The notes under the pieces: generated by a model
Database searches by the model: none
What the model saw: only the letters and a program-made list of their open reading frames with translations
Told to the model about the DNA's origin: nothing
Source: a virus
Taxonomy: Duplodnaviria > Caudoviricetes
Length of the DNA stretch: 63,645 nucleotides
IMG/VR virus record: IMGVR_UViG_3300017971_000297
Span: 1 to 63,645 of that record
Direction: 5' to 3' (one strand)
Position numbers and translations under genes: made by a program
In this document: in pieces, positions 1-62,696 of the stretch
Layout of the letters: each line of letters opens with the position of its first letter
Numbering within the stretch: position 1 is the stretch's first letter

Positions 1-201
1 AACCCCTGGGATAAGATCAAATTCAAGTGGGGTAAAGGCCATATGGTTGGTACCCTATCTAAGTATATAGGTGAAGACTACTGGTGGGTGTTATTTACAG
101 ATGGGTGTTTTGACAGGTGTGTAGAGATGAGAGGCTACATGTTCTCCCACGCCAACCCAGTTACCTACATGAGACGGAGCAAAGAATCTCGTGAGCAATA
201 A
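1..201 (+). CDS. Partial (5'-truncated) small SH3/KOW-like protein with C-terminal YM[KR] tag
   Basis: Not in the ORF track. Frame 1 translated by hand: NPWDKIKFKWGKGHMVGTLSKYIGEDYWWVLF...ANPVTYMRRSKESREQ*, stop TAA at 199-201, overlapping the next gene. Confidence 0.7.
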   Translation, partial: NPWDKIKFKWGKGHMVGTLSKYIGEDYWWVLFTDGCFDRCVEMRGYMFSHANPVTYMRRSKESREQ

Positions 202-418
202 TAAGTATAAGTTAGGTGATAGGGTTAGATTTAATAGTCAGAGGCTTAAAGGAGTAGGGGTAGTGGTGGCTATTTCTCAATTTGCTCCAGATTGTTATGT
301 GGTTCAAGGCCCGCCCCGAGCGGGTGGTCGCGGCCTCCGGATAGGCTTACACGAGAAAGAAATGAAATATGACACTATAGACTATATGAAATATATGAGA
401 AGGAAAAGGGAAGAATAG
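191..418 (+). CDS. Small SH3/KOW-like protein, YMK-tag family
   Basis: KYKLGDRVRF...GVGVVVAI...YVVQ beta pattern; ends YDTIDYMKYMRRKREE. Confidence 0.75.
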   Translation: MSNNKYKLGDRVRFNSQRLKGVGVVVAISQFAPDCYVVQGPPRAGGRGLRIGLHEKEMKYDTIDYMKYMRRKREE

Positions 419-666
419 TGGGTTGGAAACAAAAGTTACACCTATTTCAGTTGGGAGATAGAGTAAACTTTGATTACCTGGGCAGGAAAGTAACGGGGAA
501 GATTACAGGTATAAGGACCACTAAATCTCCCTATTCTGGATTCCCTCTATATCAGGAGTATACGGTAGAATTCTCGGATGGCCGCCGCATGAATATGTGC
601 TGCTGCAAAGAAAGTGACCTTATGCTGGCAGATACTATAGAGTATATGAAAAGGAAGAAACAGTGA
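418..666 (+). CDS. Small SH3/KOW-like protein, YMK-tag family
   Basis: FQLGDRVNF...TGKITGI...YTVEFSDG; ends ADTIEYMKRKKQ; TAGTG overlap with the previous gene. Confidence 0.75.
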   Translation: MGWKQKLHLFQLGDRVNFDYLGRKVTGKITGIRTTKSPYSGFPLYQEYTVEFSDGRRMNMCCCKESDLMLADTIEYMKRKKQ

Positions 667-884
667 AATATAAGGTAGGAGACAAGATTAAGCTGTCTAC
701 GGGATATGAGTTTAGCCCGCAGGTGTATATCGGAACAGTAGTAAGAGAGCCTACCAAGAAGAATAATCTCTATTTGATAGAATTCAAGGCAGATGAGAGA
801 GGTACACAAAGAATATACCTAACCGCTGATCAAATTAGGCCTTTAAATGTAATGACTTATATGAAGCGAGGTAAAAAGAAGTGA
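663..884 (+). CDS. Small SH3/KOW-like protein, YMK-tag family
   Basis: MKYKVGDKIKL...IGTVV...YLIEF; ends LNVMTYMKRGKKK; GTGA overlap. Confidence 0.75.
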   Translation: MKYKVGDKIKLSTGYEFSPQVYIGTVVREPTKKNNLYLIEFKADERGTQRIYLTADQIRPLNVMTYMKRGKKK

Positions 885-1093
885 AGTTTAAAGAGGGAGA
901 TAGTGCTTTATATACGGACGAGGAGGGTACAGTCCATAGAGTAAAGATCCTAGAAGCTTACCCCGTAACACGATGCTATATAATAACCCCTGTGATCAAC
1001 CAGGATACAGGACATACAACGGTGGCTGTAGCAGAATACTACTTAAAAATAGACTTGTTGAACTATATGGTTGATAGGAAGAGTAAAAAATGA
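881..1093 (+). CDS. Small SH3/KOW-like protein, YMK-tag family (variant)
   Basis: MKFKEGDSALY...VKILE...YIITP; ends IDLLNYMVDRKSKK; GTGA overlap. Confidence 0.72.
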   Translation: MKFKEGDSALYTDEEGTVHRVKILEAYPVTRCYIITPVINQDTGHTTVAVAEYYLKIDLLNYMVDRKSKK

Positions 1094-1362
1094 CAAAATA
1101 TGCGTTAATTCCACTTTTAGCCCTAGTGGTTTTAGGATGTTTTCTACTTAAGGCTACCAGCGAGTTAGACAAGTCAATAGATTCCTTTTCTAAATCTATA
1201 GATAACCTAGAGTGTGTCTATGAAGTTACTGAAGGCTGGCCAGAGAAATTTCCTATGGAAGAGTTCAAGGAACGGATGCCAGATGCTCCCTGGACCAAGG
1301 AGAGTATAAACTCCTTCGTGGACTTATTGGTAGAAGATTGTATGAAAGCTAAAGGCTATTAG
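1090..1362 (+). CDS. Hypothetical membrane-anchored protein or lipoprotein
   Basis: N-terminal hydrophobic stretch ALIPLLALVVLGCFLL; ATGA overlap. Confidence 0.65.
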   Translation: MTKYALIPLLALVVLGCFLLKATSELDKSIDSFSKSIDNLECVYEVTEGWPEKFPMEEFKERMPDAPWTKESINSFVDLLVEDCMKAKGY

Positions 1363-1436
1363 ATATACCCCTGAGATGCACCAGATTGCTCTGTATCGCG
1401 TTTTAATTGCTCAGGCATACCCAGATAGAGGCTAAA

Positions 1437-1673
1437 ATGATTAAGAAAGAGACTAAGATAACAAAAGTAGAACGAATACATACAGTTAGTGTTATTTGCG
1501 ATGTATGTAAGAAAGAGATCACTCCTGACGATACATATGAATGGCAGGAGATCCATTTTGTAGCCTTTACCGGAGGCTTTGGGTCAGTTTTTGGAGATGA
1601 TACTACTGTTCAATGTGAGATTTGCCAACACTGTCTGAAGAAGCTTATAGGACAATATTGCCGCTATGATTAG
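1437..1673 (+). CDS. Small Cys-rich (zinc-finger-like) phage protein
   Basis: VICDVCKK ... CEICQHC; ATG at 1437 after GAGG preferred over the TTG at 1407. Confidence 0.7.
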   Translation: MIKKETKITKVERIHTVSVICDVCKKEITPDDTYEWQEIHFVAFTGGFGSVFGDDTTVQCEICQHCLKKLIGQYCRYD

Positions 1674-1944
1674 ATATTATAATGGAGATTGCGTGAAAGT
1701 ACAGGTATTCTTTCCGGGCAATCACAAGGGACCCAATACTAAGTGGGTTTCTGGTACAGTTATATCATGTGAGTACGGGAATCCAGAAGGCGTACATATG
1801 CCTGATAGCTATACAGTACTTTTAAAGCCCAGGAACGAGGAACTGTTTTCCTTCGGCTTTGGTGAAGTAGCTCCCATCTTAAGCGTAGGACCTAAATACA
1901 TTAAGAGAGACACTTTGGGGTATATGAGGAAGAATAAAAAATGA
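1666..1944 (+). CDS. Small SH3/KOW-like protein, YMK-tag family
   Basis: RYYNGDCVKV...WVSGTVISC...YTVLL; ends RDTLGYMRKNKK. Confidence 0.72.
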   Translation: MIRYYNGDCVKVQVFFPGNHKGPNTKWVSGTVISCEYGNPEGVHMPDSYTVLLKPRNEELFSFGFGEVAPILSVGPKYIKRDTLGYMRKNKK

Positions 1945-2246
1945 GCAAAGACGATATCTTAGATGATCTTAAGGGTACTTGTGAGAAGTCTAGGCACCCC
2001 TATCTTAAAAAACCCCGATTCTATCGGGTTGTAAATAGGGGCAAAAAGCGGTGCCCCAACAGTAATAGCGGGCTTCATACTCCTGATAAATTGGAATGGG
2101 GAGTAGATTTAAGAGACGACAACCACATGGTAGACTTATGGTGCGGAGATTGCGGTAAGAAATTCAGGAAGATACCCTTCAGAGACTTACCGGAAGAATT
2201 TCAGGACCATATAAACAAGACGCTGGAGGAGAAAATTAATGTTTAA
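1941..2246 (+). CDS. Hypothetical zinc-binding protein
   Basis: C-x6-H and WCGDCGK motifs; ATGA overlap. Confidence 0.65.
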   Translation: MSKDDILDDLKGTCEKSRHPYLKKPRFYRVVNRGKKRCPNSNSGLHTPDKLEWGVDLRDDNHMVDLWCGDCGKKFRKIPFRDLPEEFQDHINKTLEEKINV

Positions 2247-2490
2247 ATTTGGGGATTTTGTGAGAGTTACCTCCGGCCATCCGGAGTATAACTTCTGGTC
2301 TGAGGCTATAGGTATGGTATTAGATTCCTCTTGGTCTCCTCAGTCGGGTAACCAAGAGTATAGAGTAAGAATGACACATCCTACACTTACAGGCATACAT
2401 TATGATGCTACATTTGAAGGATGGCATTTAAGTTCGGTAGATACTATAGACTATATGAAGTACAGGAAAAGGAAAGAGTGGCAGGTATGA
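2239..2490 (+). CDS. Small SH3/KOW-like protein, YMK-tag family
   Basis: MFKFGDFVRV...IGMVLD...YRVRM; ends VDTIDYMKYRKRKEWQV; GGAGGAG RBS. Confidence 0.75.
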   Translation: MFKFGDFVRVTSGHPEYNFWSEAIGMVLDSSWSPQSGNQEYRVRMTHPTLTGIHYDATFEGWHLSSVDTIDYMKYRKRKEWQV

Positions 2491-2813
2491 ATAAGGCTGA
2501 GAGATTACTCAAGAAAAAGAAAAAATTTGAAGATAAAGCAGATCGTATCCATGGACTTATAGAGTATAGAAAGTGGCAAAATGAGGATTCTTTAAAATTC
2601 TCTGGAAGCCCAAACCAAGATAAACCTCTAGTACACATGGCTGCTAAAAGAGATTGGAAAAATGGGTCCCTGATACCTGCCGTTATGCTAGAAAACAACG
2701 TGATAGTCTCAGGAGTTGAGGAAATTCAACAATTTAGGGACTGGTTGACCGAAATGCTATCTGATTCCCTGACTTCAGAAATGCGTGAAATTAAAGAGAA
2801 AAACAATAAGTAA
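2487..2813 (+). CDS. Hypothetical protein
   Basis: Start MNKAER at the ATGA overlap (2487) preferred over 2421. Confidence 0.62.
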   Translation: MNKAERLLKKKKKFEDKADRIHGLIEYRKWQNEDSLKFSGSPNQDKPLVHMAAKRDWKNGSLIPAVMLENNVIVSGVEEIQQFRDWLTEMLSDSLTSEMREIKEKNNK

Positions 2814-2880
2814 CATTTTTTACAGGAACAATTGTTACTATTTTGTTTAACTATGTATAAGTATTGCCCTTATTATAGAG
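2814..2880 (+). promoter_or_regulatory. AT-rich intergenic region, possible promoter for the downstream operon
   Basis: TTGTTA (2832-2837), 18 nt, TATAAG (2856-2861); weak sigma70-like match in one of the few gaps in the region. Confidence 0.25.
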
Positions 2881-3006
2881 GCATCTTTAAGGACATGTGC
2901 CTGGGTGGTTAGCTTGTCCTCCTAGCCTGTTTCTTGCGGCTTTCTGCTGCTCACAGGTAACACTTTATTTGATTCGTATCTATCCCCACCTGAAGACGGA
3001 TTAACA

Positions 3007-3195
3007 ATGAAGCCGATAGTTGACTGCCCAGGCCTAAACCAATTAGCTAGGGCCATAGAACTTTGTGATGAAATACTCTCTAGCCACACCCAGGCCAAAA
3101 TAATTTCCCTTAAAGAGCATAGATTCATAAAGGAACTGAGAGCGGAACTTATAGAAGAATTTCGCCGTCTTAGCAGAAAGATGCTATTTGGATAA
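3007..3195 (+). CDS. Hypothetical protein
   Basis: 62-aa helical ORF co-oriented with its neighbours. Confidence 0.5.
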   Translation: MKPIVDCPGLNQLARAIELCDEILSSHTQAKIISLKEHRFIKELRAELIEEFRRLSRKMLFG

Positions 3196-3204
3196 TGGGC
3201 AACT

Positions 3205-3594
3205 ATGGCATTCAAGAAATCCTTGAAAAAAGTCCTTCCTAATCCGGAAGATCAAGTCCAAATCCCCATTAAAGACGCACATTCGCTAGAAATATCCCCT
3301 ATTTGTAAAACGGAGAAAGAGTATACTGACAGGATGGTTCTTAGTATCGGCGGTCTTCACCGCAAGATAGGTATATTAAAAAGACCTGATGTATACGGAC
3401 CTGAAGATATTATAGAGGAAAAACTAGCTCTAGAGTCTGTGGGTGCTGAATTGATCATTCCGAGTATCATTAAGCCCCTAGGATTATCCAATCCTGACTG
3501 GATTACATATCTAGTACTGTTTACGCATGATAAAAAGCTGTTTGTATGCCCTGCGGACTTTGATTCATTTTCCGATATGAGGTACGGGAGGTAG
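3205..3594 (+). CDS. Hypothetical protein
   Basis: 129-aa ORF in operon orientation. Confidence 0.6.
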   Translation: MAFKKSLKKVLPNPEDQVQIPIKDAHSLEISPICKTEKEYTDRMVLSIGGLHRKIGILKRPDVYGPEDIIEEKLALESVGAELIIPSIIKPLGLSNPDWITYLVLFTHDKKLFVCPADFDSFSDMRYGR

Positions 3595-3709
3595 ACGAGG
3601 GTAACTTCGGTTACTCTCATGTGATTCCTCCCATTACTTAGTAAGCCTAAGTAACTTCCTCCTCGTCTGTTGGGTGGAGGGGCTAGTATTGCTGGTCCCT
3701 CCCCCGACA
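3586..3709 (+). ncRNA. Candidate structured RNA / cis-regulatory element (multi-hairpin)
   Basis: GAGGGTAAC-TTCG-GTTACTCTC (cUUCGg tetraloop), GGGAGG/CCTCCC, TTACTTAG/CTAAGTAA and a long hairpin at 3668-3709; G-U pairs favour the + strand. Confidence 0.5.
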
Positions 3710-3725
3710 ATTTGTGAGAATTATT

Positions 3726-3935
3726 ATGAAAATTAGGTTAGATCCTTCAAAAAATAGTGATGATTCCCGTATGATAGACGGAGCCCTAAAGATACTAAGT
3801 GCTTTAGGGGGAGGTATCCTAGAGTTAGGCCCTGGAATTTATACATCTAAAGGGATTCGTGTTCCTTCGGGGTGTGTTATTACGGGCAAGGGAATAGGTA
3901 CTCCTATCACCAGTAGTATAACCAAAAAGAAGTAA
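3726..3935 (+). CDS. Short protein resembling the N-terminal cap of a pectate-lyase-type beta-helix
   Basis: DDSRMIDGALKILSALGGGILELGPGIY...VPSGCVITGKG matches the 'AI..GGG.V.L..GTY...I.G.G' cap motif. Start could be the GTG at 3714. Confidence 0.6.
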   Translation: MKIRLDPSKNSDDSRMIDGALKILSALGGGILELGPGIYTSKGIRVPSGCVITGKGIGTPITSSITKKK

Positions 3936-3944
3936 GGAGTCGCC

Positions 3945-4115
3945 ATGACGCTCAATACTAACGCCATTTTAAGACATGTGGTGGTTGCTGGTGATGTCCA
4001 TATCGTAGGAAATAATGTACGTGTGGAAAAGTGTACTATTACCGGCAATATCTTGGTCAAAGATACAGCCAAAAACTCTAAAATACGTAATAATCGGTTT
4101 TTATTAAGGAGGTAG
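3945..4115 (+). CDS. Short beta-helix-coil-like protein (56 aa)
   Basis: Hand-translated MTLNTNAILRHVVVAGDVHIVGNNVRVEKCTITGNILVKDTAKNSKIRNNRFLLRR*; AAGGAG RBS; below the ORF-track cutoff. Confidence 0.6.
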   Translation: MTLNTNAILRHVVVAGDVHIVGNNVRVEKCTITGNILVKDTAKNSKIRNNRFLLRR

Positions 4116-4124
4116 AGAGTCCAG

Positions 4125-4319
4125 ATGGACCCTGCTAGTTTATCAATTGTAGAAGAAGGGGTTTCAGACCCACCTAGAGGAAGCGAATTAGTGGAGTGGT
4201 ATGAATTTTTGGGTGTTATGATCCTTTGGGACCTAGCCCGCTCGGTGTTTACAGCTTGGTTGACTAAATATTGGCTTAGTAAGCGTCCAGCGAAGGAAAG
4301 GAAAGCCCAGGATGCCTAA
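4125..4319 (+). CDS. Small putative membrane protein
   Basis: AGGAGG RBS; Trp-rich hydrophobic segment followed by a basic tail. Confidence 0.55.
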   Translation: MDPASLSIVEEGVSDPPRGSELVEWYEFLGVMILWDLARSVFTAWLTKYWLSKRPAKERKAQDA

Positions 4320-4638
4320 GATTCGCCACAGAGGGTCTATTAGATACTCGGAACCTACCGATATTGAGAAGCCAGATAAGCTTATCGATACAGACGAATT
4401 ACATATTGAGCGGCAGAAGCCTAATCGTGTAAAATTAGGCATCGAAGAGGGTGAGACCCGCTTTCCACCCGAGTCCGTAGCGCCTAATAAGCGGAAGTAC
4501 GACGAAAAAGGGCGTTATGTCAAGCACCAAAAGAGTGTTCAGAAGAAAAAGGAGGAACGAAAAGTTCCTTCAATGACGGAAATTATGAAAAATTCCTCTC
4601 TTTCTAACCCATACCGGAAGAAAAATGGCGGAAAGTAA
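4312..4638 (+). CDS. Basic hypothetical protein (HRG motif)
   Basis: K/R-rich; begins MPKIRHRGS. Confidence 0.6.
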   Translation: MPKIRHRGSIRYSEPTDIEKPDKLIDTDELHIERQKPNRVKLGIEEGETRFPPESVAPNKRKYDEKGRYVKHQKSVQKKKEERKVPSMTEIMKNSSLSNPYRKKNGGK

Positions 4639-5179
4639 GCAAAAAGATGTAAAATTGGCCGAAATTCCAGTGAATGCTAGTGAAGAGGCAGCTAAAAAGC
4701 GCCTTAGAAACCTATCTAAAGACGGCTGGAGTGTTGTACAGCTATTTTTACAGGAAATTCAAGCCAACGACCTGGTCAAAGAGGTGTTAGGGGGTACTAA
4801 AGTTACTCTCACTAACCAAATTGAGGTATTGAAAGAGAGAATCGAGTTAGAATTCGAAGACGACGAAGAGGTTAAAAAGTTAATTCAGGCAACTTTTCCT
4901 ACATATAACACTATTCGTAGGTGGACTAAGGCCAAAGACTGGCAAGACGCTGTGTATGGTAGCATTAAGTATGCTAATTTATTCGATAACTTCCATAAAG
5001 CGAAAGTTATTGAGGGCGTATATAAGAAAGCTACGGCAGATGGACGCCAGGATATGAAAGCCGCAGAGCTTTACTTTAAGATCGAGGCTGATGTGTTCGG
5101 TAAAAATAAAGATAAAGGGGCTGAAAGTCTGCAAGACGAGTTGACGAGCGTGGTATTAGGGAAAAAGAAGTCTAAGTAA
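4625..5179 (+). CDS. Putative terminase small subunit
   Basis: Helical 184-aa protein immediately upstream of TerL, with HTH-like PTYNTIRRW and D.KAAELYFK. Assignment is mainly positional. Confidence 0.55.
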   Translation: MAESKQKDVKLAEIPVNASEEAAKKRLRNLSKDGWSVVQLFLQEIQANDLVKEVLGGTKVTLTNQIEVLKERIELEFEDDEEVKKLIQATFPTYNTIRRWTKAKDWQDAVYGSIKYANLFDNFHKAKVIEGVYKKATADGRQDMKAAELYFKIEADVFGKNKDKGAESLQDELTSVVLGKKKSK

Positions 5180-5188
5180 GGATGAGGA

Positions 5189-6682
5189 ATGGAAGCCTAC
5201 GTTGAGTATGGTGAACCTTTAAAATTACATGAGCTGCACATTGAGGAGTTGGTCAAAACTCTAGAAGCTAAGGGCGTTAAGCTTGTTTCTTCTAAAATTG
5301 GCCCCCTGACTCCTAAGCAGGCACTGATTTGCAATGATGAAGCTCGGTTTAAGGTAGTAGCGTGCGGACGTAGGTTTGGGAAGTCGATGCTATGTACACT
5401 TATCGCCCTGGCAGTACTATTACAGCCGGGACGAAAGGTGTGGGTAGTAGCTAAAGACTACGGACTCACGGATAGGGTCTTTAAAGAACTCTATCATTTG
5501 GTGGTAAATGAACTAAAGCTCGCTAAGAGTAAGTCCATGTATCACCGGTTTGTTACCCTAAACAACGGAAGTGAGTTTAGGGGCAAGTCCTGCACCAACC
5601 GAACCTCTTTAGTTGGTGATGCTGTTGATCTCATAATTTGGGATGAGGCTGCTCTAGAAGAGCAAGGAGAAGATATATGGAACCAGGAGCTTCGGCCCTG
5701 TTTAACTGACCGAAAAGGTTCAGCTATCTTTATTTCTACTCCTAGGGGCCGTAATCACTTTTATGAGTGGTATAAGCTAGGCAAAAAAGGTGAATTTGTA
5801 CGCAATGCTTTAGAAGAAGCAGATTCAGAACTATCGGAAGAAGACATTGCTATCTCTGACTGGTCTTCATACAAGTTTACCTCTTATGCCAACACTACTG
5901 AAGAAGGGGGATATTTAGATAGGGCTGAGATTGATGCGGCTAGACTGACTCTACCGCCGCTGAAGTTTCGTCAGGAGTATCTGGCAGATTTTACGGCTGT
6001 TTCTGATAGAACCTTTCCAGAGTTTAATTTCGACACACAGCTTATAGACGAAGACTTTGGTGGAAATATCATACAGCCCAATAATCCGGAAGTTTACGCC
6101 AGCATGGACTTTAACTATTCTACACCATGTACTACTCTCTACGCCCAAATGGATGGAAACTTAAATATTTTCATTTTCGATGAGTTTGTCCCTCCAGAAG
6201 CTCAAACTACAGTTCATGCCCAAGCGAAGCAATTGTTAGAGATGGATGCTAAATTAGGAGGGGCAATAAAAGTAGTTGTAGCTGATATTGCGGGCAAACA
6301 AAAAGATTTGGCTGGAAGAAGTGCCTGGGATGATTTAAATTCTTGGGGAATCTATCCCACAGGCAGGAAGCAAAGGATAGAGACGGGCTGTGACCTGATC
6401 CGCCTCTGGTGTAAGTACCCTGTCATAGATGAGAAGGGGAAAATACTCTTTGAGGAAGATGGATTAACTCCCATAACATATCCTAAACTATTTGTACATA
6501 AGAGATGTGAAAGTCTTATTTATGCCCTAGAAACTGCCACTGCGCCAGAAACCCAAGGAGGATTGCTGAAAGAGGGATATAAAAAGGACGGTAAAACGGA
6601 CGGACCCTTGGATGCTCTCCGGTATTTATTGGTATATTTGCTCCATGATTCCGGTTATGTAGGAGCAGTTCCAGTAATTTAA
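5189..6682 (+). CDS. terL: Terminase large subunit
   Basis: Q-motif LTPKQ, Walker A GRRFGKS, Walker B LIIWDEAA, motif III FISTPRG, FRQEYLADF, nuclease motifs SMDFN and DGPLDALRY. Confidence 0.95.
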   Translation: MEAYVEYGEPLKLHELHIEELVKTLEAKGVKLVSSKIGPLTPKQALICNDEARFKVVACGRRFGKSMLCTLIALAVLLQPGRKVWVVAKDYGLTDRVFKELYHLVVNELKLAKSKSMYHRFVTLNNGSEFRGKSCTNRTSLVGDAVDLIIWDEAALEEQGEDIWNQELRPCLTDRKGSAIFISTPRGRNHFYEWYKLGKKGEFVRNALEEADSELSEEDIAISDWSSYKFTSYANTTEEGGYLDRAEIDAARLTLPPLKFRQEYLADFTAVSDRTFPEFNFDTQLIDEDFGGNIIQPNNPEVYASMDFNYSTPCTTLYAQMDGNLNIFIFDEFVPPEAQTTVHAQAKQLLEMDAKLGGAIKVVVADIAGKQKDLAGRSAWDDLNSWGIYPTGRKQRIETGCDLIRLWCKYPVIDEKGKILFEEDGLTPITYPKLFVHKRCESLIYALETATAPETQGGLLKEGYKKDGKTDGPLDALRYLLVYLLHDSGYVGAVPVI

Positions 6683-6702
6683 GCCAAGTAAAAGGAAAAA
6701 AC

Positions 6703-7029
6703 ATGACTGACAGTATTATTCAAAATAGACGTATGATACGTCAAAGATTTGACCCGACAGCTTTTCATCAGACAGTAGAACTAGACGCGGTCACTACTTC
6801 CGACAAGGTAAAACTTGATGTCGTAGCGACAAAGATCACTGTTCAGCCCCCAACCGGTATGACTATTACGGTAGATGTATCCTTGGACGGAATTCGGTGG
6901 ACCCAAGTAGTTACAGGCCTCACAGCCCTGTTTACTTATGGAGACGCCATTGGTGATCATCTAGTTAAACATGTGAGAATAACGAGAACTGCTGGTTCTT
7001 CGGGGAAAGTAATAATTGTTGGAGCCTAA
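6703..7029 (+). CDS. Hypothetical beta-rich (possibly virion) protein
   Basis: VDVSLDGIRWT...HVRITRT pattern typical of small jelly-roll domains. Confidence 0.65.
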   Translation: MTDSIIQNRRMIRQRFDPTAFHQTVELDAVTTSDKVKLDVVATKITVQPPTGMTITVDVSLDGIRWTQVVTGLTALFTYGDAIGDHLVKHVRITRTAGSSGKVIIVGA

Positions 7030-7031
7030 GT

Positions 7032-7262
7032 ATGCCAGATCCCATCCCCAAATTAGTGATATATGTGAACGGAAGGTTTAGGCTTATCAAGTCCAACCTG
7101 CCTAGTTCTGTGCAGGGCGATGCGGATATGCAACGTAAGTTACTATTGCTCATGGCTCACAAATATCGCTTCTTCGATTGGGGAAACAAGCTTCCAGAAG
7201 AAAAATTTGAAGAAATTAACACTTATGTATATAGTTTAGTTCAAGACTTATACGAGGAATAA
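7032..7262 (+). CDS. Hypothetical protein
   Basis: 76-aa ORF with GGAG RBS. Confidence 0.6.
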   Translation: MPDPIPKLVIYVNGRFRLIKSNLPSSVQGDADMQRKLLLLMAHKYRFFDWGNKLPEEKFEEINTYVYSLVQDLYEE

Positions 7263-7265
7263 ACA

Positions 7266-7571
7266 ATGCCCAAACGTGCAGATAAAGCTACAGGAAAGAG
7301 TACGCTGAAACATAGGGGGCAAAGCCGCAAACAACAGGGAAATCCAGGAACTAAGGCTTATAAGGCAGAGACTGAAAAAGTCAAGCCTAAGACTATGAAA
7401 GACCGTGGTCCTGGTTCAGCGTTTGCCAATGCTCTCTATAGGAGCGAAGCTGCTCGTCTTAAGGAAGAGTCAAAGAAACCAGGAAATCTGGGCTATAAAG
7501 AAACACTTCCTGTTGGCCCGCAAGCAAAGAATAAATCTTTGACTAAGTATTTGAAAAAAGGCAAAAAATAA
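7266..7571 (+). CDS. Highly basic protein (HRG motif)
   Basis: Lys-rich; STLKHRGQS; GAGG RBS. Confidence 0.65.
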   Translation: MPKRADKATGKSTLKHRGQSRKQQGNPGTKAYKAETEKVKPKTMKDRGPGSAFANALYRSEAARLKEESKKPGNLGYKETLPVGPQAKNKSLTKYLKKGKK

Positions 7572-8374: not shown

Positions 8375-8518
8375 ATGGCAGAGAAACGTAAAGTTTCGGA
8401 TAAGGCTTTTGCGCTTAAGCATCGTGGCAAAAAGCTTCATCAAGGTGAGAAGGTCGGTATGCCCGAGCCTCTGGCCAAAGAAGAAGTTGCCAAGAGCCTG
8501 AAAAAGAAAAAGAAATAA
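8375..8518 (+). CDS. Small basic protein (47 aa, HRG motif)
   Basis: Hand-translated MAEKRKVSDKAFALKHRGKKLHQGEKVGMPEPLAKEEVAKSLKKKKK*; AAGGAG RBS. Confidence 0.65.
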   Translation: MAEKRKVSDKAFALKHRGKKLHQGEKVGMPEPLAKEEVAKSLKKKKK

Positions 8519-11812: not shown

Positions 11813-13180
11813 ATGGCACAAGTTGTGACTCTCACAGAAGCTGCAAAACTCTCTAATAACCTTCTGGTTGAGGGCATTATCGAGGATATCGTTACGGTTG
11901 ATGATTGGTATCAATATCTTCCGTTCGTGGTGTTTGAGGGCTTAGCCTATACTTTCACCCGTGAAGCGACTCTCGCTAAGGCCGATTTTGCGGCTCCCGG
12001 CACTTCCCTAGCTGCGGCTAAATTTCAGGGCGGTGCTACGTTCCAAAATGTGAACGTTAACCTAGCAGCTATTATTGGCGACATCATTCTCGATGGTCAA
12101 ATCGAGGATCAACTCTCTGATCACAATGATCAACTTCAGGTACAGATTTCTTCCAAAGCGAAGCAGATCGCACGTATCTACATGAACGCGATTATCAATG
12201 GTCGTAGGGTTCCAGGTGGCGCTTTAACGCAAGCCAATAGTGGTCCTATCGGCATCGAAGCCAAATTCGACGGCATGAAGAGAATTCTTGAAGCCGAAGC
12301 TGGCAACGTCGATGACGTCAACCATCCTTTCTACAATGCTGGCGCGTCTACTCAGACTTTGGCGCTCGTTGAGGATGATCCTTCATCTTCGCGTAATGGT
12401 CGCCCAGGCCGTGTGTTCGCACTCGAAGATTTGGACAATCTGATTGACCGTATTACGGTTGGTCGTCCTGACTTCTTGATGATGAACGCTCGTGAGATCC
12501 GGACGCTACGTGTTCTCTTGAGGAACACCGGCGGTGGTACGGATGCGTATCAAATTCAACAGCAGGGTCTTGGTAATATGAAGCCTATGCTTTTCTATCA
12601 AGATATTCCTATTTTCCGTAATGACTTTGTTTCTAAAGAAGACGGCGTCAACTTGGTTGATACCGGTGCTGTTGCGGCTGTTGGCGCTACTAGCATTACT
12701 ACAGCTGAAGACTATAGTGGTGGTGTTCCGGCGGCTTTGTCCGACGGTATCACTGCTGGTACGGCTGAAGTCCGTGTTCGTGACGACGACGCTATTCTCC
12801 GGCGCTGGAAAATTACGGCAGCTACTGCGGCTAACCCGTCAGTGTTGACCGTGACGGCGACTGGGCAGTTCTTGGATGTCGAGAACAACCGTGTGGAGAG
12901 CGTGTTGGCTCCTAACAACGCTTCTCTCAGTCTCGTGGCAGAAACGTATGAGATTTTTGAGAGAGCTGACGGCTCTACTGTTTACGCTGGTAAATGGGGT
13001 GAGTACGAAGGCGTTGTGGGCTTTACGTCCGCTCAAAATGCTGGTCTTAAACTTGAGTATGTCGGTCCTCGTGAAGATGAGAACGCCTACCAATATCGTC
13101 TCAAATGGTATTGTGGTTTCGATCTTTACAACCGTCTTGCTCTTGCTAGGGCTAAAGACGTTCTTCCGCTGGAGGCTTAA
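11813..13180 (+). CDS. Major capsid protein (HK97 fold, epsilon15 gp7-like) with an inserted domain
   Basis: TLTEAAKLSNNLLVEGIIEDI...LPFVVFEGLAYTFTRE N-terminus and YRLKWYCGFDLY...LAR C-terminus; followed by a terminator. Confidence 0.9.
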   Translation: MAQVVTLTEAAKLSNNLLVEGIIEDIVTVDDWYQYLPFVVFEGLAYTFTREATLAKADFAAPGTSLAAAKFQGGATFQNVNVNLAAIIGDIILDGQIEDQLSDHNDQLQVQISSKAKQIARIYMNAIINGRRVPGGALTQANSGPIGIEAKFDGMKRILEAEAGNVDDVNHPFYNAGASTQTLALVEDDPSSSRNGRPGRVFALEDLDNLIDRITVGRPDFLMMNAREIRTLRVLLRNTGGGTDAYQIQQQGLGNMKPMLFYQDIPIFRNDFVSKEDGVNLVDTGAVAAVGATSITTAEDYSGGVPAALSDGITAGTAEVRVRDDDAILRRWKITAATAANPSVLTVTATGQFLDVENNRVESVLAPNNASLSLVAETYEIFERADGSTVYAGKWGEYEGVVGFTSAQNAGLKLEYVGPREDENAYQYRLKWYCGFDLYNRLALARAKDVLPLEA

Positions 13181-13888: not shown

Positions 13889-14230
13889 ATGGGACTTTTA
13901 CGACTTGACAGACAACGTCTGGAAATTAATATGATTTTGGGTGTGCTGGAAGAGTACAAGCCTACTACCCAAGTAAAACGGCTTCAAAAACGCTTAGAAC
14001 TTCTTCGTAAAAGATATACAATTGCGATGGAAGAGTTTCGTAAGGTTACTCAGGAGGAAATTGCTCCTGAATTGACTACTATCGAAGAAGAAATCAATGA
14101 AATCAACAATGCAGCTTATCCTGAACTCGCTAAGATCCAGAATGGCGAAGTAGCAGAGCCTATTAAGCTTAAAAGAGATAAGCCCGAGGACAAACCAGCA
14201 AAGAAAGCTAAAAAGAAAGCCAAGAAATAA
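13889..14230 (+). CDS. Coiled-coil protein with basic tail
   Basis: AGGAGG RBS; heptad pattern. Confidence 0.7.
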   Translation: MGLLRLDRQRLEINMILGVLEEYKPTTQVKRLQKRLELLRKRYTIAMEEFRKVTQEEIAPELTTIEEEINEINNAAYPELAKIQNGEVAEPIKLKRDKPEDKPAKKAKKKAKK

Positions 14231-25621: not shown

Positions 25622-26182
25622 ATGGCTAGAAGTTGTAAAGTAGACGCAATTGAAAAATTTCGCTTTACGGTTTCCTTTGATGGGCTAACCAGAGCGGGTT
25701 TTCATGAAGTCTCTGTCCCTAAGCAGACCACAACCAAAGGTGAATACAGAGAAGGCAATGCTCCGGAGAATATGCAGTTGTTCGCTGGTTTGCATCGGAT
25801 GGAAGACGTTGTGATGTCTCGTGGCGTCACGACTAATAAGAATTTCTATGACTGGGTAAAACTTGTTTTTGACCCTGAGAAAGTTCCTGAAGGTCAACCG
25901 AACGTGCAAGGTCCGGACGTTGTTCCTCTTGGTAATTCAGAGCTTTATCGCAGAGATATTACCATTACACTTTGGCAACGTAAAGGTGTTCCCGCCAAGC
26001 AGTGGATTCTCTATAATGCTTTTCCAGTAGCGTTTCAACCGGGTTCGGATATGAACGCTTCTGAGGACGGCGAGAAATCCATGGAGCAATTAACTGTGGG
26101 CTACGAGTCCTTTGTGGAACTTAGTGGTTCGGAGATTAAGGCTCCAGAGGCTGGTGAAGATCAGGATTCGCCTGTTACGTAA
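25622..26182 (+). CDS. Tail tube protein 1 (T4 gp19/Afp1-like)
   Basis: FRFTVSFDG..AGFHEVS, EYREG, VVMSRGVT, FYDW, RRDITITL, W.LYNAFP, EQLTVGYE. Confidence 0.9.
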   Translation: MARSCKVDAIEKFRFTVSFDGLTRAGFHEVSVPKQTTTKGEYREGNAPENMQLFAGLHRMEDVVMSRGVTTNKNFYDWVKLVFDPEKVPEGQPNVQGPDVVPLGNSELYRRDITITLWQRKGVPAKQWILYNAFPVAFQPGSDMNASEDGEKSMEQLTVGYESFVELSGSEIKAPEAGEDQDSPVT

Positions 26183-26289: not shown

Positions 26290-26475
26290 ATGGCTAAGAA
26301 GTGTACAGGACAGAAAAAAGTAAAAAAAGTTATGAAAGAGTGGAAAAAAGGTAAACTTCACTCTGGTTCGAAAAAAGGGCCAAAAGTGAATAGTCAAAAA
26401 CAGGCTATTGCTATAGCTCTAAGTGAGGCTGGATTATCTAAATCTAGTAAAAAAGGAAGAAAAAATAATGGCTAA
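26290..26475 (+). CDS. Small basic protein, DUF6496-like
   Basis: KVKKVMKEWKKGKLHSGSK.GPKVNSQKQAIAIALSEAG. Confidence 0.75.
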   Translation: MAKKCTGQKKVKKVMKEWKKGKLHSGSKKGPKVNSQKQAIAIALSEAGLSKSSKKGRKNNG

Positions 26476-26662
26476 AAAGAAAAAGGGTAAATACATAGGA
26501 TTTGCTAAATTAGCCAAAAAAATTGGAGCAAAGGGAGATGTTAAAGATCCCAAGGCTGTTGCTGCTGCTATTGGGCGCAAAAAGTATGGTAAAAAAACTA
26601 TGCAAAAAGCTGCCGCAAAAGGAATTAAAGTTCCAAACTTAAAGAAAAAAAAGAAGAAATAA
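26468..26662 (+). CDS. Small Lys-rich protein
   Basis: MAKKKKGKYIGFAKL...KDPKAVAAAIGRKKYGKK; ATG 26468 after AAGGAAG. Confidence 0.7.
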   Translation: MAKKKKGKYIGFAKLAKKIGAKGDVKDPKAVAAAIGRKKYGKKTMQKAAAKGIKVPNLKKKKKK

Positions 26663-26664
26663 CT

Positions 26665-26898
26665 ATGGCTACTGCTTCGAAAAAGTATAAAGATCGTCTT
26701 AAGGGGGGCCTAGCGGATAAAAGTAAGCCCTCGGATTTTAATAGGAAACAACTATCTAAAGGTATCAAAGTAGAGTTAGAGCATACTAATGATAAAAAGA
26801 TTGCCAGAGAGATAGCTATGGATCACTTAAAGGAAGATTCTAAGTATTATACTAAGTTAGCAAAAATGGAAAAAAAGAAATCAGGGAGAAAGAAATAA
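26665..26898 (+). CDS. DUF5661-like small protein
   Basis: GIKVELEHTND...AREIAMDHLKEDSKYYTKL. Confidence 0.78.
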   Translation: MATASKKYKDRLKGGLADKSKPSDFNRKQLSKGIKVELEHTNDKKIAREIAMDHLKEDSKYYTKLAKMEKKKSGRKK

Positions 26899-27038
26899 TG
26901 GCTTTCAAACGTAGAACCAAACAAGAGATGGAAGAACGTAAGCAAAAAGCTAAAAAGTCTCTTAAAAAAATTGAGAAAAAAGAGGAAAAGTTAGAGAAGG
27001 TTGTAGAGGAAAAACCTAAAAAGAAAAAAAAGAAGTAG
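26898..27038 (+). CDS. Small Lys/Glu-rich protein (46 aa)
   Basis: Hand-translated MAFKRRTKQEMEERKQKAKKSLKK...KPKKKKKK*; TAATG overlap. Confidence 0.6.
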   Translation: MAFKRRTKQEMEERKQKAKKSLKKIEKKEEKLEKVVEEKPKKKKKK

Positions 27039-27046
27039 GAGTTTAA

Positions 27047-27742
27047 ATGGCTCGCTCATCTAGTGTAGATGCCGTTGAAAGATTCAGATTCAACGTATAT
27101 GTGTTTAATATTGGGTTTGATCTGTCCAATATAGCTAAAAATTTCACGGGGTTCCTACGGGCAGGTTTTACAGAGGTTACTCTTCCCAGACAAACCACTG
27201 GGGTAATGGAGTACCGCGAGAATGTAGACCAAGCACATCCACAGTTAATCCCAGGTATAACTAGATTTGAGCCTATAGTTTTGAGGAGAGGAGTTACCTC
27301 TAGTTCCGATTTTTTTAGATGGGCTAAAGATACCCATAATCCCTCTAGCATAGTTTCTACTGCCATCCAACGGCTCAATGGAGATGCTTCCGCAGCTCCT
27401 CCCGCCCAAACAGCAGATTTTCGCAGAGACGTTCTTATTATAGTATATGGTAGAGGTGGTGGAGTACAGACTGAAGATCCAACAGGTATTAGTCAAAGAA
27501 TTACTGGAGTTGCTGGAGCAGCTTCATCCGCTTTTGGACTTAATGCGCTGGGAGACGTAAAAAAGGCATGGCTCCTTAGAGATGCGTGGGTATCCTCATA
27601 TAAACCTGGGGATGATTTATCTGCTACGGAAGATACAACTAAGCTTGTAGAAGAAATCGAGCTACGTTATGAATCTTTTGAAGAAATCTCTCTTGAAGCC
27701 CTTACTAGTCAAGCCCTATCACTTGGTACAGGTATCCTTTAA
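27047..27742 (+). CDS. Tail tube protein 2 (gp19-like)
   Basis: DAVERFRFNV, AGFTEV, EYRE, PGITRFEPIVLRRGVT, FRRDVLI, W.LRDAWV, EEIELRYE. Confidence 0.88.
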   Translation: MARSSSVDAVERFRFNVYVFNIGFDLSNIAKNFTGFLRAGFTEVTLPRQTTGVMEYRENVDQAHPQLIPGITRFEPIVLRRGVTSSSDFFRWAKDTHNPSSIVSTAIQRLNGDASAAPPAQTADFRRDVLIIVYGRGGGVQTEDPTGISQRITGVAGAASSAFGLNALGDVKKAWLLRDAWVSSYKPGDDLSATEDTTKLVEEIELRYESFEEISLEALTSQALSLGTGIL

Positions 27743-51701: not shown

Positions 51702-51845
51702 TTAAAAGGTGAAATAGAGGTACATAAAGCCCATCTGGGCTAACGCACCAAGTAGACTAGCAACCATCCAACCTAATCCGCCGAAAACTCCAAGCACAAA
51801 AGCTGTAACTGCTAGTCCTGCCAATGATTTAATAGTTTTTTTCAT
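51702..51845 (-). CDS. Small hydrophobic membrane protein (47 aa)
   Basis: Hand-translated MKKTIKSLAGLAVTAFVLGVFGGLGWMVASLLGALAQMGFMYLYFTF*; GAGGAGG RBS; ATGA overlap. Confidence 0.6.
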   Translation of the reverse strand: MKKTIKSLAGLAVTAFVLGVFGGLGWMVASLLGALAQMGFMYLYFTF

Positions 51846-53465: not shown

Positions 53466-53672
53466 TTACCCTTTTTTCTTGATTAAAAGCCTACATGCAG
53501 TTAACTCATTGTTTTTCTTGAGTCTTCCGGTCACCATCTTGTGGCCTCCGGGGATGTTTACTGTCTCAAATTCCTCAGGTTTAAAATCCTCTGATTTGAT
53601 GCCAGGAAACGAATAGTGCATATAGTCATCAGTCTCATGGACCTTCTCTAGTTCATCTTTCTTTCTAACCAT
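53466..53672 (-). CDS. Hypothetical protein
   Basis: 68 aa, overlaps the upstream gene. Confidence 0.58.
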   Translation of the reverse strand: MVRKKDELEKVHETDDYMHYSFPGIKSEDFKPEEFETVNIPGGHKMVTGRLKKNNELTACRLLIKKKG

Positions 53673-53922
53673 TGTTTATCCCTTTAGTGGCTTTCATAGT
53701 TTTTATAGTACATACGAAGAACTCTGGTCCTTCCAGGTAACCTCCAGATATTGTTAATACTCCGCTCAGGTCTCCTCTAGATCCCATAGTCTCAACTATA
53801 TAGCTTGCCTCTTCCTCTAGACAGTCCACTATATGGAAGTACTTATAGGGAGAGGTTTCATCCGCGCACTTAAATTCCAGCACCGTACCCGGTTTATATT
53901 TTAGTTTAAAGCACGTTTTCAT
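53665..53922 (-). CDS. Small SH3/KOW-like protein, TMK-tag subtype
   Basis: LKYKPGTVL...FHIVD...SYIVE; ends VCTIKTMKATKG. Confidence 0.68.
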   Translation of the reverse strand: MKTCFKLKYKPGTVLEFKCADETSPYKYFHIVDCLEEEASYIVETMGSRGDLSGVLTISGGYLEGPEFFVCTIKTMKATKGINNG

Positions 53923-54193
53923 CTTTAATATTCTTCATTGTTTTTATTACATCTACTGAACATCTCTCCTCCAGGAACTCCCTGGGGACTTCTTCTACTT
54001 TCTTCTTTTCTCTCACTTGACCATTGAGAGTTTTTAAGATGTTGACTATATAATTTTCTCCCGCCTCATCGAAAGCCACTATCTCTATTAGGATGCAAAA
54101 ATCAATGACCGGGGTTGTATACCTCTGCCTAGTAACCAAGTTTTCCAAGGGCATCTTAAGTATCTGTCCGGGTAAGTATTTAGGTTCTTTCAT
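53906..54193 (-). CDS. Small SH3/KOW-like protein, TMK-tag subtype
   Basis: PKYLPGQIL...IEIVA...NYIVN; ends VDVIKTMKNIKDE. Confidence 0.7.
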   Translation of the reverse strand: MKEPKYLPGQILKMPLENLVTRQRYTTPVIDFCILIEIVAFDEAGENYIVNILKTLNGQVREKKKVEEVPREFLEERCSVDVIKTMKNIKDENVL

Positions 54194-54411
54194 TGTTTCC
54201 TATTTTTCATGGTTCTGATTATATTCGGCTTGAATAGCTGGTTGAGAGTTTTCTCATTGTACCCACGCCTAAAGGCCTCTCCAGAGAATTTTCGGCACTT
54301 GCAGAGATAGATTCCTATGGTAGGAAAAATGGACTCTATTCTTACATGCTGTATATCATTATCCCAGCTCTTTTTCTTGGCTACAAAACAGTCACCTACT
54401 TGGTATTGCAT
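54190..54411 (-). CDS. Small SH3/KOW-like protein, TMK-tag subtype
   Basis: [10 protein letters not shown]...VRIES...IYLCK; ends PNIIRTMKNRKQ. Confidence 0.7.
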   Translation of the reverse strand: MQYQVGDCFVAKKKSWDNDIQHVRIESIFPTIGIYLCKCRKFSGEAFRRGYNEKTLNQLFKPNIIRTMKNRKQ

Positions 54412-61367: not shown

Positions 61368-61606
61368 TACTTACTCTCCTTGCCATTGAGTTTAAGATCC
61401 GAATACTTCCTGGCTGTATAAGACGCCAAAGATGGGGTAAGAATAGCAGCATCAATAGCAGCTAAATGTTGAACAAAGACTGAATTTCCGGTTAACCAGG
61501 CAGCCACAAAACCCGTGACTGTGAGAATACCTGCTAAAACAAAGCCAGCCACGGCCAGGCTTAGCATAGTATCCGGCTTTTTAGTTCTTGGGTGCTTTAA
61601 CCACAT
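61367..61606 (-). CDS. Small two-TM membrane protein (holin-like)
   Basis: Two hydrophobic segments; Y.ARKY near the C-terminus. Confidence 0.62.
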   Translation of the reverse strand: MWLKHPRTKKPDTMLSLAVAGFVLAGILTVTGFVAAWLTGNSVFVQHLAAIDAAILTPSLASYTARKYSDLKLNGKESK

Positions 61607-61862
61607 TTCTTAATTTCCTCCTCAATCTCTTCATATAGGTTATTGGCTCTTCCTCTTCAAGTGTTATAGTGACTTTCATAAGCCTTCTGTCCGTTGAGCA
61701 CACTGTTAAAGCTTCTGTCTTTGTACGAAAGACTCCATAGATATGCCCCGGAAAAAGACCCACTTCCATATTGTGTACATCGTTAGAAGTAAAGTTCGGC
61801 CAGTTAGATTGCTCTGCTACGAACCGGGGTACCCAACCATGCAGTTCTTTCTTCCACGACAT
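61581..61862 (-). CDS. Hypothetical protein carrying the YMK tag
   Basis: Start MSWKKE after GGAGG; ends EEPITYMKRLRRKLRNVVKAPKN. Confidence 0.65.
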   Translation of the reverse strand: MSWKKELHGWVPRFVAEQSNWPNFTSNDVHNMEVGLFPGHIYGVFRTKTEALTVCSTDRRLMKVTITLEEEEPITYMKRLRRKLRNVVKAPKN

Positions 61863-62476
61863 TATAACAAAACCTCCGGATCTATCCGAAATAGAGTACA
61901 ATTATTAGGATCTTTGGTGAACCAGGCTAAAGCTATACATATAGCGTCATACAAGTCTGTGGGCGTAGCTCTTTCCTTGCCCGTAATATTTGATACCATC
62001 TTTTTAGGAAAGGTGTCTGGAAAAATCGTGTTTACATACTTTTTTGCTGGATCTTTCCAAGCAGCACTTCCCGCCTTAGTCTTGTCTTTCTTAATTCCCA
62101 AGGCTGCTCGCCAGGTTTGAGGCAATATGGAGTCAAATGTCAGAGGGGGCTCTAGCTCATAACAGCAAGATTTGATAGCCCCGGTAGCCTCCGGAATTAC
62201 CAAAACACCACACATACGTTTTCGGTTAACCATGTAGCCCTCAGCCACAATACCATCCACTTTATATTGAATATAGGCTATATTCTCAATAAATTTGGTA
62301 AGATAGTTATACTTTTCCCCGTGGCTCCATTTAGGGTCAAACCAGATAACTCCAGCTTTGTGGATTGTTGCCTCTTTCCTACCCACATGCTGGGAAGCCA
62401 CAACCCAGCCCGTACAGCTACTAGAGATGTCTAGAAATAGTATCCGGTTATCCCCATAGTTCTTTATGTTACTCAT
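61862..62476 (-). CDS. RuvC-like Holliday junction resolvase
   Basis: ILFLDISSSCTGW, IVAEG, PQTWRAALG, DLYDAICIA (RNase H-like catalytic D/E/D/D). Confidence 0.82.
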   Translation of the reverse strand: MSNIKNYGDNRILFLDISSSCTGWVVASQHVGRKEATIHKAGVIWFDPKWSHGEKYNYLTKFIENIAYIQYKVDGIVAEGYMVNRKRMCGVLVIPEATGAIKSCCYELEPPLTFDSILPQTWRAALGIKKDKTKAGSAAWKDPAKKYVNTIFPDTFPKKMVSNITGKERATPTDLYDAICIALAWFTKDPNNCTLFRIDPEVLL

Positions 62477-62696
62477 TGGATTCCTTTTTATCTTTCATGT
62501 ATCTAATAGGGTCTCGAACAATTCTAAATTCTCTATGGCGGACCACCCTACCATGAGAGTACAACTGCTCTATCTCTCTTCTCTGAACTTTTAAACCACT
62601 ATCTACCAGCAAGATTCTGATTGCTTCGACCAGTATGCCTACATTTACATCAGAGTCTAGCGGGCAATCTTCCCACCTACTTGGATTCTGCTCCAT
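62469..62696 (-). CDS. Hypothetical protein carrying the YMK tag
   Basis: Ends RDPIRYMKDKKESNE; overlaps both neighbours. Confidence 0.62.
   Translation of the reverse strand: MEQNPSRWEDCPLDSDVNVGILVEAIRILLVDSGLKVQRREIEQLYSHGRVVRHREFRIVRDPIRYMKDKKESNE

Follow-up and report, generated by a model that had tools for sequence, protein, structure and literature searches.

Why do twelve small proteins of a single phage end in nearly the same ten residues? The question is raised by the IMG/VR record IMGVR_UViG_3300017971_000297 (Duplodnaviria; Caudoviricetes), a linear sequence of 63,645 bp that was analysed in its entirety and is called the window hereafter, and whose completeness is estimated at 55% by CheckV. 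An initial annotation, made from the letters of the sequence alone, had noted that seven open reading frames (ORFs) on the + strand at the start of the window and five on the - strand towards its end share a C-terminal motif (the tag), and had proposed a portable peptide that sorts or docks unrelated proteins. Our data suggest, with a probability of roughly 60%, that a single lineage-specific family of Tudor/SH3-like barrels, 66-95 residues long, has been heavily duplicated and has hyper-diverged, and that the tag is its conserved C-terminal helix and constant working end.

The C-terminal motif

All seven + strand and five - strand ORFs exist and end exactly as had been annotated. In a six-frame scan of the window the strict pattern [DNEC][TPVILM][ILMV]x[YT]M[KRV] has 12 matches, every one of them in these 12 carrier ORFs, where it is C-terminal in 12 of 12 cases with 4-15 residues between its last position (K/R/V) and the stop. 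The 93 called proteins (20,548 aa) contain the motif 12 times in their last 25 residues (2,325 aa) and not once in the 18,223 residues before these. When the 25-residue end of every protein was shuffled 2,000 times, the control against Lys-rich tails that had been proposed with the initial annotation and one that preserves their composition, the result was a mean of 0.01 motifs and a maximum of 1, compared with the 12 real ones. The tagged family accounts for 12 of the 53 small proteins of the window.

A terminase search returned three records whose large terminase (TerL) is 90% identical to that of the window, one of which (G002; 107,565 bp, 94% complete) was compared in full and is referred to below as the relative. 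It holds 21 strict carriers. A position matrix was made from 28 tag segments and its threshold set at 9.5, since no internal position of long frames (23,625 in all) scored higher. Above this value the relative has 28 carriers (7 of them outside the training set), and in the window no carrier beyond the 12 comes up. When the record of the relative is read as a circle, 20 of its 28 carriers map between 103 kb and 14.4 kb, around the point where transcription diverges, and the others are found in the block of replication and nucleotide-metabolism genes.

The window and the relative together have 32 distinct tags, in which Met is invariant (32/32), as is a K/R at Met+4 (32/32), and the refined consensus is [DN]-T-[IL]-x-[YT]-M-[KR]-x-x-K. 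The Tyr is encoded by TAT in 16 tags and TAC in 7, nine tags have Thr in its place with three different codons, and the third codon positions at D, T and I carry only 0.23-0.38 bit of information. The ratio of nonsynonymous to synonymous substitution rates (dN/dS) is 0.00-0.27 in seven of eight orthologue pairs. The tail shuffles, the synonymous codon variation and the low dN/dS thus show that the C-terminal motif is real, far above chance and under selection at the protein level, in agreement with what had been proposed from the use of both Tyr codons.

Relatedness of the carrier proteins

The motif had not been recognised as a described one, and no known family was found behind it: Pfam gave nothing significant on the 12 carriers (the best E-value, 0.024, fails the cut-off of its family) and neither did PHROGs (best E-value 0.015). 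A further 12 carriers of the relative gave nothing above the cut-offs of either collection, and one of them (positions 105288-105509 of its record) has weak zinc-ribbon-type matches. By eye, nine carriers of the window share a start of the form K-[YF]-K-x-G-D-x-V; in the truncated ORF 1-201 a start of this type is present in the full orthologue of the relative, which begins MRFEVGDKIKF.

The bodies were compared with the tags removed, using leave-one-out profiles that excluded both the target and its orthologue, with seed members picked by eye and 300 shuffles per target. In the window, no shuffle reached the score of four carriers (numbers 2, 3, 4 and 8 in the list below), 1-6 shuffles reached that of four more (1, 7, 9 and 10) and 10-21 that of two others (5 and 6); carriers 11 and 12 gave no signal. 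Over the 23 proteins tested, nine beat all 300 shuffles and five more were reached by 1-6. The orthologue of carrier 11 shares its N-terminus with carrier 3 (BLASTP E 8e-4 over 46 columns). When the open frames of the two genomes, 1,591 in all, were searched with bodies only, all 25 matches with E < 0.003 carried the tag, and the next-ranked matches ended in the degenerate tags DVIEHMRKNKK, DTVTMMKEGK and DIINQMKVKR, so that every barrel member detectable in these frames has a tag or a degenerate tag and none is tagless. The gene bodies had been described as highly divergent; most of them now appear as one hyper-diverged family. Most carriers are thus probably paralogues within one clade-restricted Tudor/SH3-like barrel family, with the motif shared mainly by descent, and the interpretation given in the initial annotation is partly supported.

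The twelve carriers of the window are listed here, with the number of shuffles that reached the score of the real body and, for three of them, the identity to the orthologue in the relative.

Carrier 1: 1..201, + strand; tag NPVTYMRRSK at 154-183; 5' end lost to the end of the record; barrel-type via its orthologue
Carrier 2: 191..418, + strand; tag DTIDYMKYMR at 371-400, with duplicated YMK/YMR; barrel-type; 0/300 shuffles
Carrier 3: 418..666, + strand; tag DTIEYMKRKK at 631-660; barrel-type; 0/300 shuffles; dN/dS 0.13
Carrier 4: 663..884, + strand; tag NVMTYMKRGK at 846-875; modelled barrel member; 0/300 shuffles
Carrier 5: 881..1093, + strand; tag DLLNYMVDRK at 1052-1081; weak barrel signal, 21/300 shuffles; missing from the relative
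Carrier 6: 1666..1944, + strand; tag DTLGYMRKNK at 1909-1938; weak barrel signal, 10/300 shuffles; orthologue tag DVIEHMRKNKK (Y to H)
Carrier 7: 2239..2490, + strand; tag DTIDYMKYRK at 2440-2469; barrel-type; 1/300 shuffles; whole-gene indel against the relative
Carrier 8: 53665..53922, - strand; tag CTIKTMKATK at 53712-53683; barrel-type, T-M-K subtype; 0/300 shuffles; dN/dS 0.19
Carrier 9: 53906..54193, - strand; tag DVIKTMKNIK at 53953-53924; barrel-type; 3/300 shuffles
Carrier 10: 54190..54411, - strand; tag NIIRTMKNRK at 54225-54196; barrel-type; 4/300 shuffles; body 68% identical, tag 10/10 positions
Carrier 11: 61581..61901, - strand; tag EPITYMKRLR at 61649-61620; likely start 61862; body missed by the profile, 277/300 shuffles; body 46% identical, tag 8/10 positions
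Carrier 12: 62469..62696, - strand; tag DPIRYMKDKK at 62513-62484; predicted fold not a canonical barrel; 82/300 shuffles; body 30% identical, tag 6/10 positions

The carriers lie in early-type and replication regions and do not adjoin the capsid genes; their distance to the major head gene (11813-13180) is 9-50 kb.

Predicted structures

ORF 663-884 (carrier 4), modelled with AlphaFold2 from 18 family members at a mean predicted local distance difference test (pLDDT) score of 80, is predicted to be a small five-stranded Tudor/SH3-like barrel, with strands at residues 8-12, 21-28, 36-43 and 47-54, a short fifth strand at 59-60 and a helix at 63-71 that corresponds to the tag. Members of this fold class are tightly curved antiparallel barrels of five strands and about 60 residues. 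Foldseek related the model to Tudor, chromo-barrel, PWWP and Agenet domains, including those of SGF29, SMN and MSL3 and a PWWP domain, with template modelling (TM) scores of 0.55-0.61 and E-values of 0.02-0.2. VIA-align gave Z scores of 6-7.2 to a designed SH3 barrel, PWWP, Tudor, NusG KOW, chromodomains and the Lon factor entry 5ycq; by the tool's own remark such scores are common for small barrels, and they therefore point to a class of fold, not to a function. A C-terminal helix behind the barrel is present in chromo-barrel and PWWP domains too, and these align over residues 1-71 or 1-73 of the model, and in the chromo-barrel chains MRG15 and MRG701 the alignment over residues 1-71 includes the helix. 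The Tudor/chromo-barrel/PWWP ('Royal') family and KOW domains differ from the carriers in that there is no significant sequence match between them (the best Pfam E-value of 0.024 being below cut-off), and in that those families lack the D-T-I-x-Y-M-K-x-x-K helix. Royal-family readers bind methylated Lys or Arg in an aromatic cage.

A second model, of ORF 62469-62696 (carrier 12), is described below with the points that bear on the interpretation. In both models the tag is predicted as a helix that begins 1-2 residues past the last strand with no linker, which is consistent with the helix that had been proposed for it. A complex prediction with two copies of ORF 663-884 and the family alignment scored 0.01, which is evidence neither way.

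Comparison with known systems

Uncharacterised SH3-like phage proteins of 50-90 residues, known from BFVD models, have the same size and fold class as the carriers, and almost all of the top 50 viral matches of the ORF 663-884 model are unnamed phage proteins (TM 0.45-0.68); none of these matches has E <= 0.001, and the tagged form is seen only in this clade. The carriers also resemble bL19 and the Sso7d/Sac7d-type proteins in combining an SH3-like barrel with a K/R-x-G-D-x-V first strand and a basic end extension. Among solved structures the best sequence match is indeed the ribosomal protein bL19, aligned end to end, with an E-value of 0.044 that is not significant; as there is no Pfam match to Ribosomal_L19 either, this identity was rejected, and no carrier matches the Pfam family 7kD_DNA_binding. 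We know of no description of a 28-copy expansion with one conserved tail, and the carriers form a new, expanded mini-protein family with a conserved C-terminal helix.

Short peptides common to several proteins are known from other systems. Encapsulin cargo-loading peptides are short, C-terminal and common to the cargo proteins, which they dock inside an HK97-fold shell; they follow a flexible linker and are encoded near the shell gene. The carriers share with them the short C-terminal peptide, and differ in that the predicted helix begins 1-2 residues past a strand and that the genes lie far from the major head gene. Degrons of the ssrA or MuA type, which AAA+ proteases recognise by residues at the extreme C-terminus of an unstructured tail, include the basic MuA signal, and the carrier tails are basic as well; in the carriers the conserved core stops 4-15 residues short of the end, and the final residues are variable. 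The T4 capsid targeting sequence is N-terminal and is cut off by the prohead protease, whereas the carrier motif is C-terminal, directly follows a predicted strand, sits mostly on one fold and belongs to genes that do not adjoin head genes. The likeness lies in a single short peptide that is conserved among small phage proteins of diverse kinds, as described for the internal proteins of T-even phages with their shared capsid targeting sequence (PMC3012670). At the level of genes, a parallel is offered by the PeSL cassettes of T4-type phages, non-coding intergenic units of an early promoter and a stem-loop terminator. They are reported to mediate the shuffling of small genes, as conserved junctions where close relatives gain, lose and exchange accessory genes (PMC2839356; PMC4122927), much as breakpoints fall in the tag here. 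Unlike in PeSL cassettes, the junction in our phage is coding and conserved as protein, the genes overlap, and promoter and terminator signals are not above chance.

Recombination at the tag

Comparison with the relative showed that the window is without one whole paralogue and that the 3' end of ORF 1-201 is a chimera, which follows the upstream gene of the relative up to ATGAGACG and then continues with the tail of the deleted neighbouring paralogue. In ORF 663-884 the match to the orthologue is collinear as far as TATATGAA; the two sequences part just after it, at the left border of a 569-bp segment found only in the window (no DNA match to 866-1434 was present in the relative). ORF 2239-2490 is a whole-gene indel, with window positions 2231-2486 unmatched in the relative. 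The body of ORF 191-418 is 95% identical to its orthologue, while the tag agrees at 3 of 10 positions and the orthologue ends in SVIGYMVRKK, which points to a swapped tail. Because breakpoints fall in the tags of ORF 1-201 and ORF 663-884 and the tail of ORF 191-418 does not match, the tag codons are taken to be points of recombination. The tag of ORF 191-418 (371-400, DTIDYMKYMRRK) is itself a tandem repeat of a TATATGA(A/G)A unit that encodes YMK-YMR. A further candidate, in which a junction of tag tail and next gene start was copied between ORF 1-201/191-418 and ORF 62469-62696 with the RuvC-like gene, was dropped, as 528 of 2,000 shuffles reached an equal score.

Translation signals and the basic tail

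In every one of the 12 carriers the downstream start codon is positioned 0-25 nt ahead of the last nucleotide of the stop codon, and a Shine-Dalgarno-like tetramer is found in the last 20 nt, i.e., in the tail codons, in 11 of 12. The 81 non-carrier proteins also tend to end in basic residues, with a K/R fraction of 0.25 in the last 8 residues compared with 0.14 elsewhere in the same proteins, and 15 of them have at least four K/R among the last 8. The Lys-rich ends of the non-carriers probably reflect the purine-rich ribosome-binding sites of tightly coupled downstream genes. Since the carrier tails overlap the Shine-Dalgarno region and start of the next gene and non-carriers are K/R-ended as well, translational coupling accounts for part of the basic tail; it does not account for the tag core, whose distance to the next start varies and whose codons change synonymously. 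Promoter-like sites were not in excess in an analysis of positions 1-5200 (9 found, 10.9 expected), and no + strand terminator-like site was detected there. Runs of Lys (KKKKKK, KKAKK) end many unrelated proteins of the window, for example those at 8375-8518, 13889-14230, 26423-26662 and 26898-27038.

Distribution of the tagged family

A profile search against 1.84 billion representatives gave 279 hits. Among the 150 of these that were listed, 15 were short end-to-end matches, all of them to proteins of this phage clade. The long hits are multi-repeat proteins aligned only to profile positions ~3-69, that is, barrel repeats without the tag, and 13 of them that were scanned had matches to SH3-fold Pfam families, many under cut-off. 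The clade was also the only source of homologues when ORF 2239-2490, ORF 62469-62696 and the family alignment served as queries. A scan of IMG/VR for D-T-I-[DE]-Y-M-K returned 31 stretches, three of which are known relatives; in two other records (L054 and L063) the motif stands near the C-terminus of other proteins and was judged to be there by chance, with ~1.7 such cases expected from position alone by our estimate. Because full-length matches and word-index searches return only this clade, the tagged barrel form is, at the level of the sequences searched, restricted to it. A literature search found no paper on such a motif, which is a thin basis for calling it unpublished.

The tag is absent from the 21.5 kb that were compared of a more distant relative (L077), a metagenome contig with a TerL 61% identical to that of the window. 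At the same position, upstream of the terminase, this contig has a small-gene array (5558-7463, + strand) whose products share another, acidic C-terminal motif, N-D-E-x-I-E-E-F-D-N-E, which coincides with the GAGGA and ATG of the overlapping next gene. This acidic motif is either a parallel tag system or the result of overlapping start regions that create shared C-termini.

Other features of the genome

The window encodes an uncultured contractile-tailed phage, as judged from Pfam and PHROGs matches to a T4-type large terminase, a major head protein, three gp19-like tail tube paralogues and baseplate proteins, and further to an amidase, a RecA with two inteins, a dUTPase, a RuvC-like resolvase and two ClpP-like proteases. 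Genes are read from the + strand up to ~51.1 kb and from the - strand beyond, and no tRNA genes were found in the window. The sequencing runs listed for this DNA are sediment and seawater metagenomes, two of which may be its source, and no RNA run is among them. The features that lie apart from the tag genes, or between them, are as follows.

25622-26182, 27047-27742 and 27742-28284: three paralogous T4 gp19-like tail tube proteins
54895-58002, - strand: RecA, interrupted by two inteins with LAGLIDADG homing-endonuclease domains
51194-51682, - strand, and 54396-54911, - strand: a nucleoside 2-deoxyribosyltransferase-like gene and a DUF968 protein in the replication block
1090-1362, + strand, and 51702-52526, - strand: small proteins with lipoprotein-like or membrane-spanning N-termini, e.g., MTKYALIPLLALVVLGC and MRKLLVSILLALTFVGC
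60621-61367, - strand, and 62677-63519, - strand: two ClpP-family proteases, outside the structural module

DNA of the relative has no match to window positions 55267-56323 or 56725-57811, so its RecA is without both inteins. The part of the relative that is absent from the window contains ArdC-like, macro-domain, RNA ligase, ThyX, class II ribonucleotide reductase and peptide deformylase genes. One of the proteins with a lipoprotein-like or membrane N-terminus is encoded inside the tag-gene array (ORF 1090-1362, missing from the relative) and four beside the amidase gene. PHROGs labels both ClpP-family proteins as head maturation protease or ATP-dependent protease, and that at 60621-61367 begins with a hydrophobic, signal-like segment, MVKKLLGILSAVILFGAANSYA. 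No gene for an unfoldase (AAA+) was found in Pfam scans of 55 proteins of the window and 48 proteins from the extra regions of the relative; an enzyme of the host may fill that role.

Interpretation of the shared helix

If the tag belongs to one barrel family, the copies would have arisen by gene duplication, followed by whole-gene gain and loss and by tail swapping with breakpoints inside the tag codons, and the same recombination could occasionally put the helix on a different body. The copies sit in tightly packed, translationally coupled small-gene arrays, mostly around the divergent early-type region and in the replication module, where the AAR/AGR codons of the tail double as the Shine-Dalgarno region of the next gene and make the basic tail partly a by-product of coding. 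As the constant working end of the family, the helix may turn a small hydrophobic face (I, M, Y or T) towards the barrel, on which it probably lies as in chromo-barrel, PWWP and Sso7d-type domains, and the invariant Lys and the basic tail would form a positive patch for a common acidic or polyanionic target, either nucleic acid or one host machine. The fast-evolving surfaces of the barrels would then give each paralogue a specificity of its own.

Several observations weigh against so simple a descent. Six strict carriers of the relative, two of them the orthologues of ORF 62469-62696 and ORF 61581-61901, show no detectable similarity to the barrel profile in body-only hidden Markov model and HHalign comparisons, and we therefore assume that some tags were transferred to other bodies or that these bodies diverged beyond recognition. 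The tag is better conserved than any position of the barrel, which has one invariant residue among 18 members, and a Met and a K/R at Met+4 that never vary suit a specific reader better than plain packing. The predicted structures cover two of the 12 carriers (ORF 663-884 and ORF 62469-62696), the other barrel-type members being linked to the fold through profiles, and the second of the two models is not a barrel: ORF 62469-62696, predicted by AlphaFold2 with its one orthologue (2 sequences; pLDDT 76), is an alpha+beta protein with a strand at 2-5, a helix at 21-32, a hairpin at 35-45/51-61 and the tag helix at 63-74. This model has no PDB match with E <= 0.001, and in the ESM Atlas carriers 11 and 12 gave low-confidence models with no SH3-like neighbour. 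AlphaFold2 confidence is also low in the tag itself, with block means of 53 and 45 in ORF 663-884 and of 65 and 60 in ORF 62469-62696, compared with 77-92 and 60-87, respectively, for the first six blocks.

These same points give some weight to the proposal of the initial annotation, that the tag is an independent helix read by one partner, which sorts, docks or encapsidates unrelated small proteins or times their degradation. It would account for the tag on the predicted non-barrel ORF 62469-62696 and on carriers of the relative without detectable body similarity, including one with weak zinc-ribbon matches, for a Met and a Lys that are invariant on very divergent bodies, for divergent orthologue pairs that keep the tag at 6-10 of 10 positions with bodies 30-68% identical, and for the low confidence of the helix; carriers 11 and 12 moreover lie near both ClpP-like genes, and T-even internal proteins, diverse and with a common capsid targeting sequence (PMC3012670), are a known analogue. 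Most carriers are nevertheless one family without a tagless barrel member, and in both models the last strand runs into the helix without a linker. The conserved core stops short of a C-terminus that varies, the carriers lie in early-type and replication regions and not beside capsid genes, the Pfam scans of 55 window proteins and 48 from the relative's extra regions found no AAA+ unfoldase, one ClpP-like protease starts signal-like, and no candidate reader was identified. The initial annotation had itself set its portable tag against an integral helix of one shared fold, with chance matches on the non-SH3 carriers. The first half of this is largely what we find, because of the profile-linked bodies, the barrel model and the lack of tagless barrel members; the second half is not, because ORF 62469-62696 has a different predicted fold and retains the tag where its orthologue has a body 30% identical. 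The tag is thus mostly inherited with one barrel family, and limited portability is possible because of the different fold predicted for ORF 62469-62696. With a tag on this predicted non-barrel protein, carriers of the relative whose bodies show no link to the family, and a Met and a Lys that never vary, we keep the partner-read helix as a tentative alternative. In its fullest form, which is equally tentative, one host or phage reader of the Met/Lys face would gather, deliver or time ~28 early mini-proteins, with recombination in the tag plugging in new bodies; these would amount to roughly one gene in six (the gene number being estimated), and the acidic motif at the same genomic position in the distant relative would point to lineage-specific pairs of tag and reader.

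Two other explanations are far less probable. Oligomerisation is a known property of small SH3-like proteins, Sm/Hfq and R67 DHFR among them, and one common helix on many paralogues might serve as a handle by which they bind one another to form mixed oligomers; a hydrophobic face of two to three residues followed by like charges that would repel makes this improbable. It is just as doubtful that the stretch is kept as DNA or RNA, either for translation initiation of the next gene or as a recombination joint, with the peptide secondary. Such an element would fit a tail that in each of the 12 carriers overlaps the Shine-Dalgarno region and the start codon of the following gene, the two breakpoints within the tag, the coincidence of the acidic motif (NDExIEEFDNE) of the distant relative with GAGGA and the next ATG, and the small-gene shuffling that PeSL cassettes are reported to mediate in T4-type phages (PMC2839356; PMC4122927). 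Against it, synonymous sites vary freely, the motif is always in frame, the distance from the ATG of the tag to the next start differs by tens of nucleotides, dN/dS is well under 1, and neither promoter-like nor terminator-like sites in the 1-5200 analysis lend it signals of its own.

Implications

Much of what is unexplained in phage genomes consists of small accessory proteins. In the present case, one family supplies 12 genes in a half-complete genome and 28 in a near-complete relative, and its only well-conserved part is a C-terminal helix of 10-12 residues. The breakpoints in the tag show concretely how small-gene arrays gain, lose and recombine genes. Should the helix be only a structural cap, the family would be an ordinary, though unusually large, lineage-specific expansion. 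If it is a constant handle for one target, this phage would possess a natural library in which variable barrels are mounted on the same fixed anchor, and the identity of that target would give dozens of orphan genes a role in a single step.

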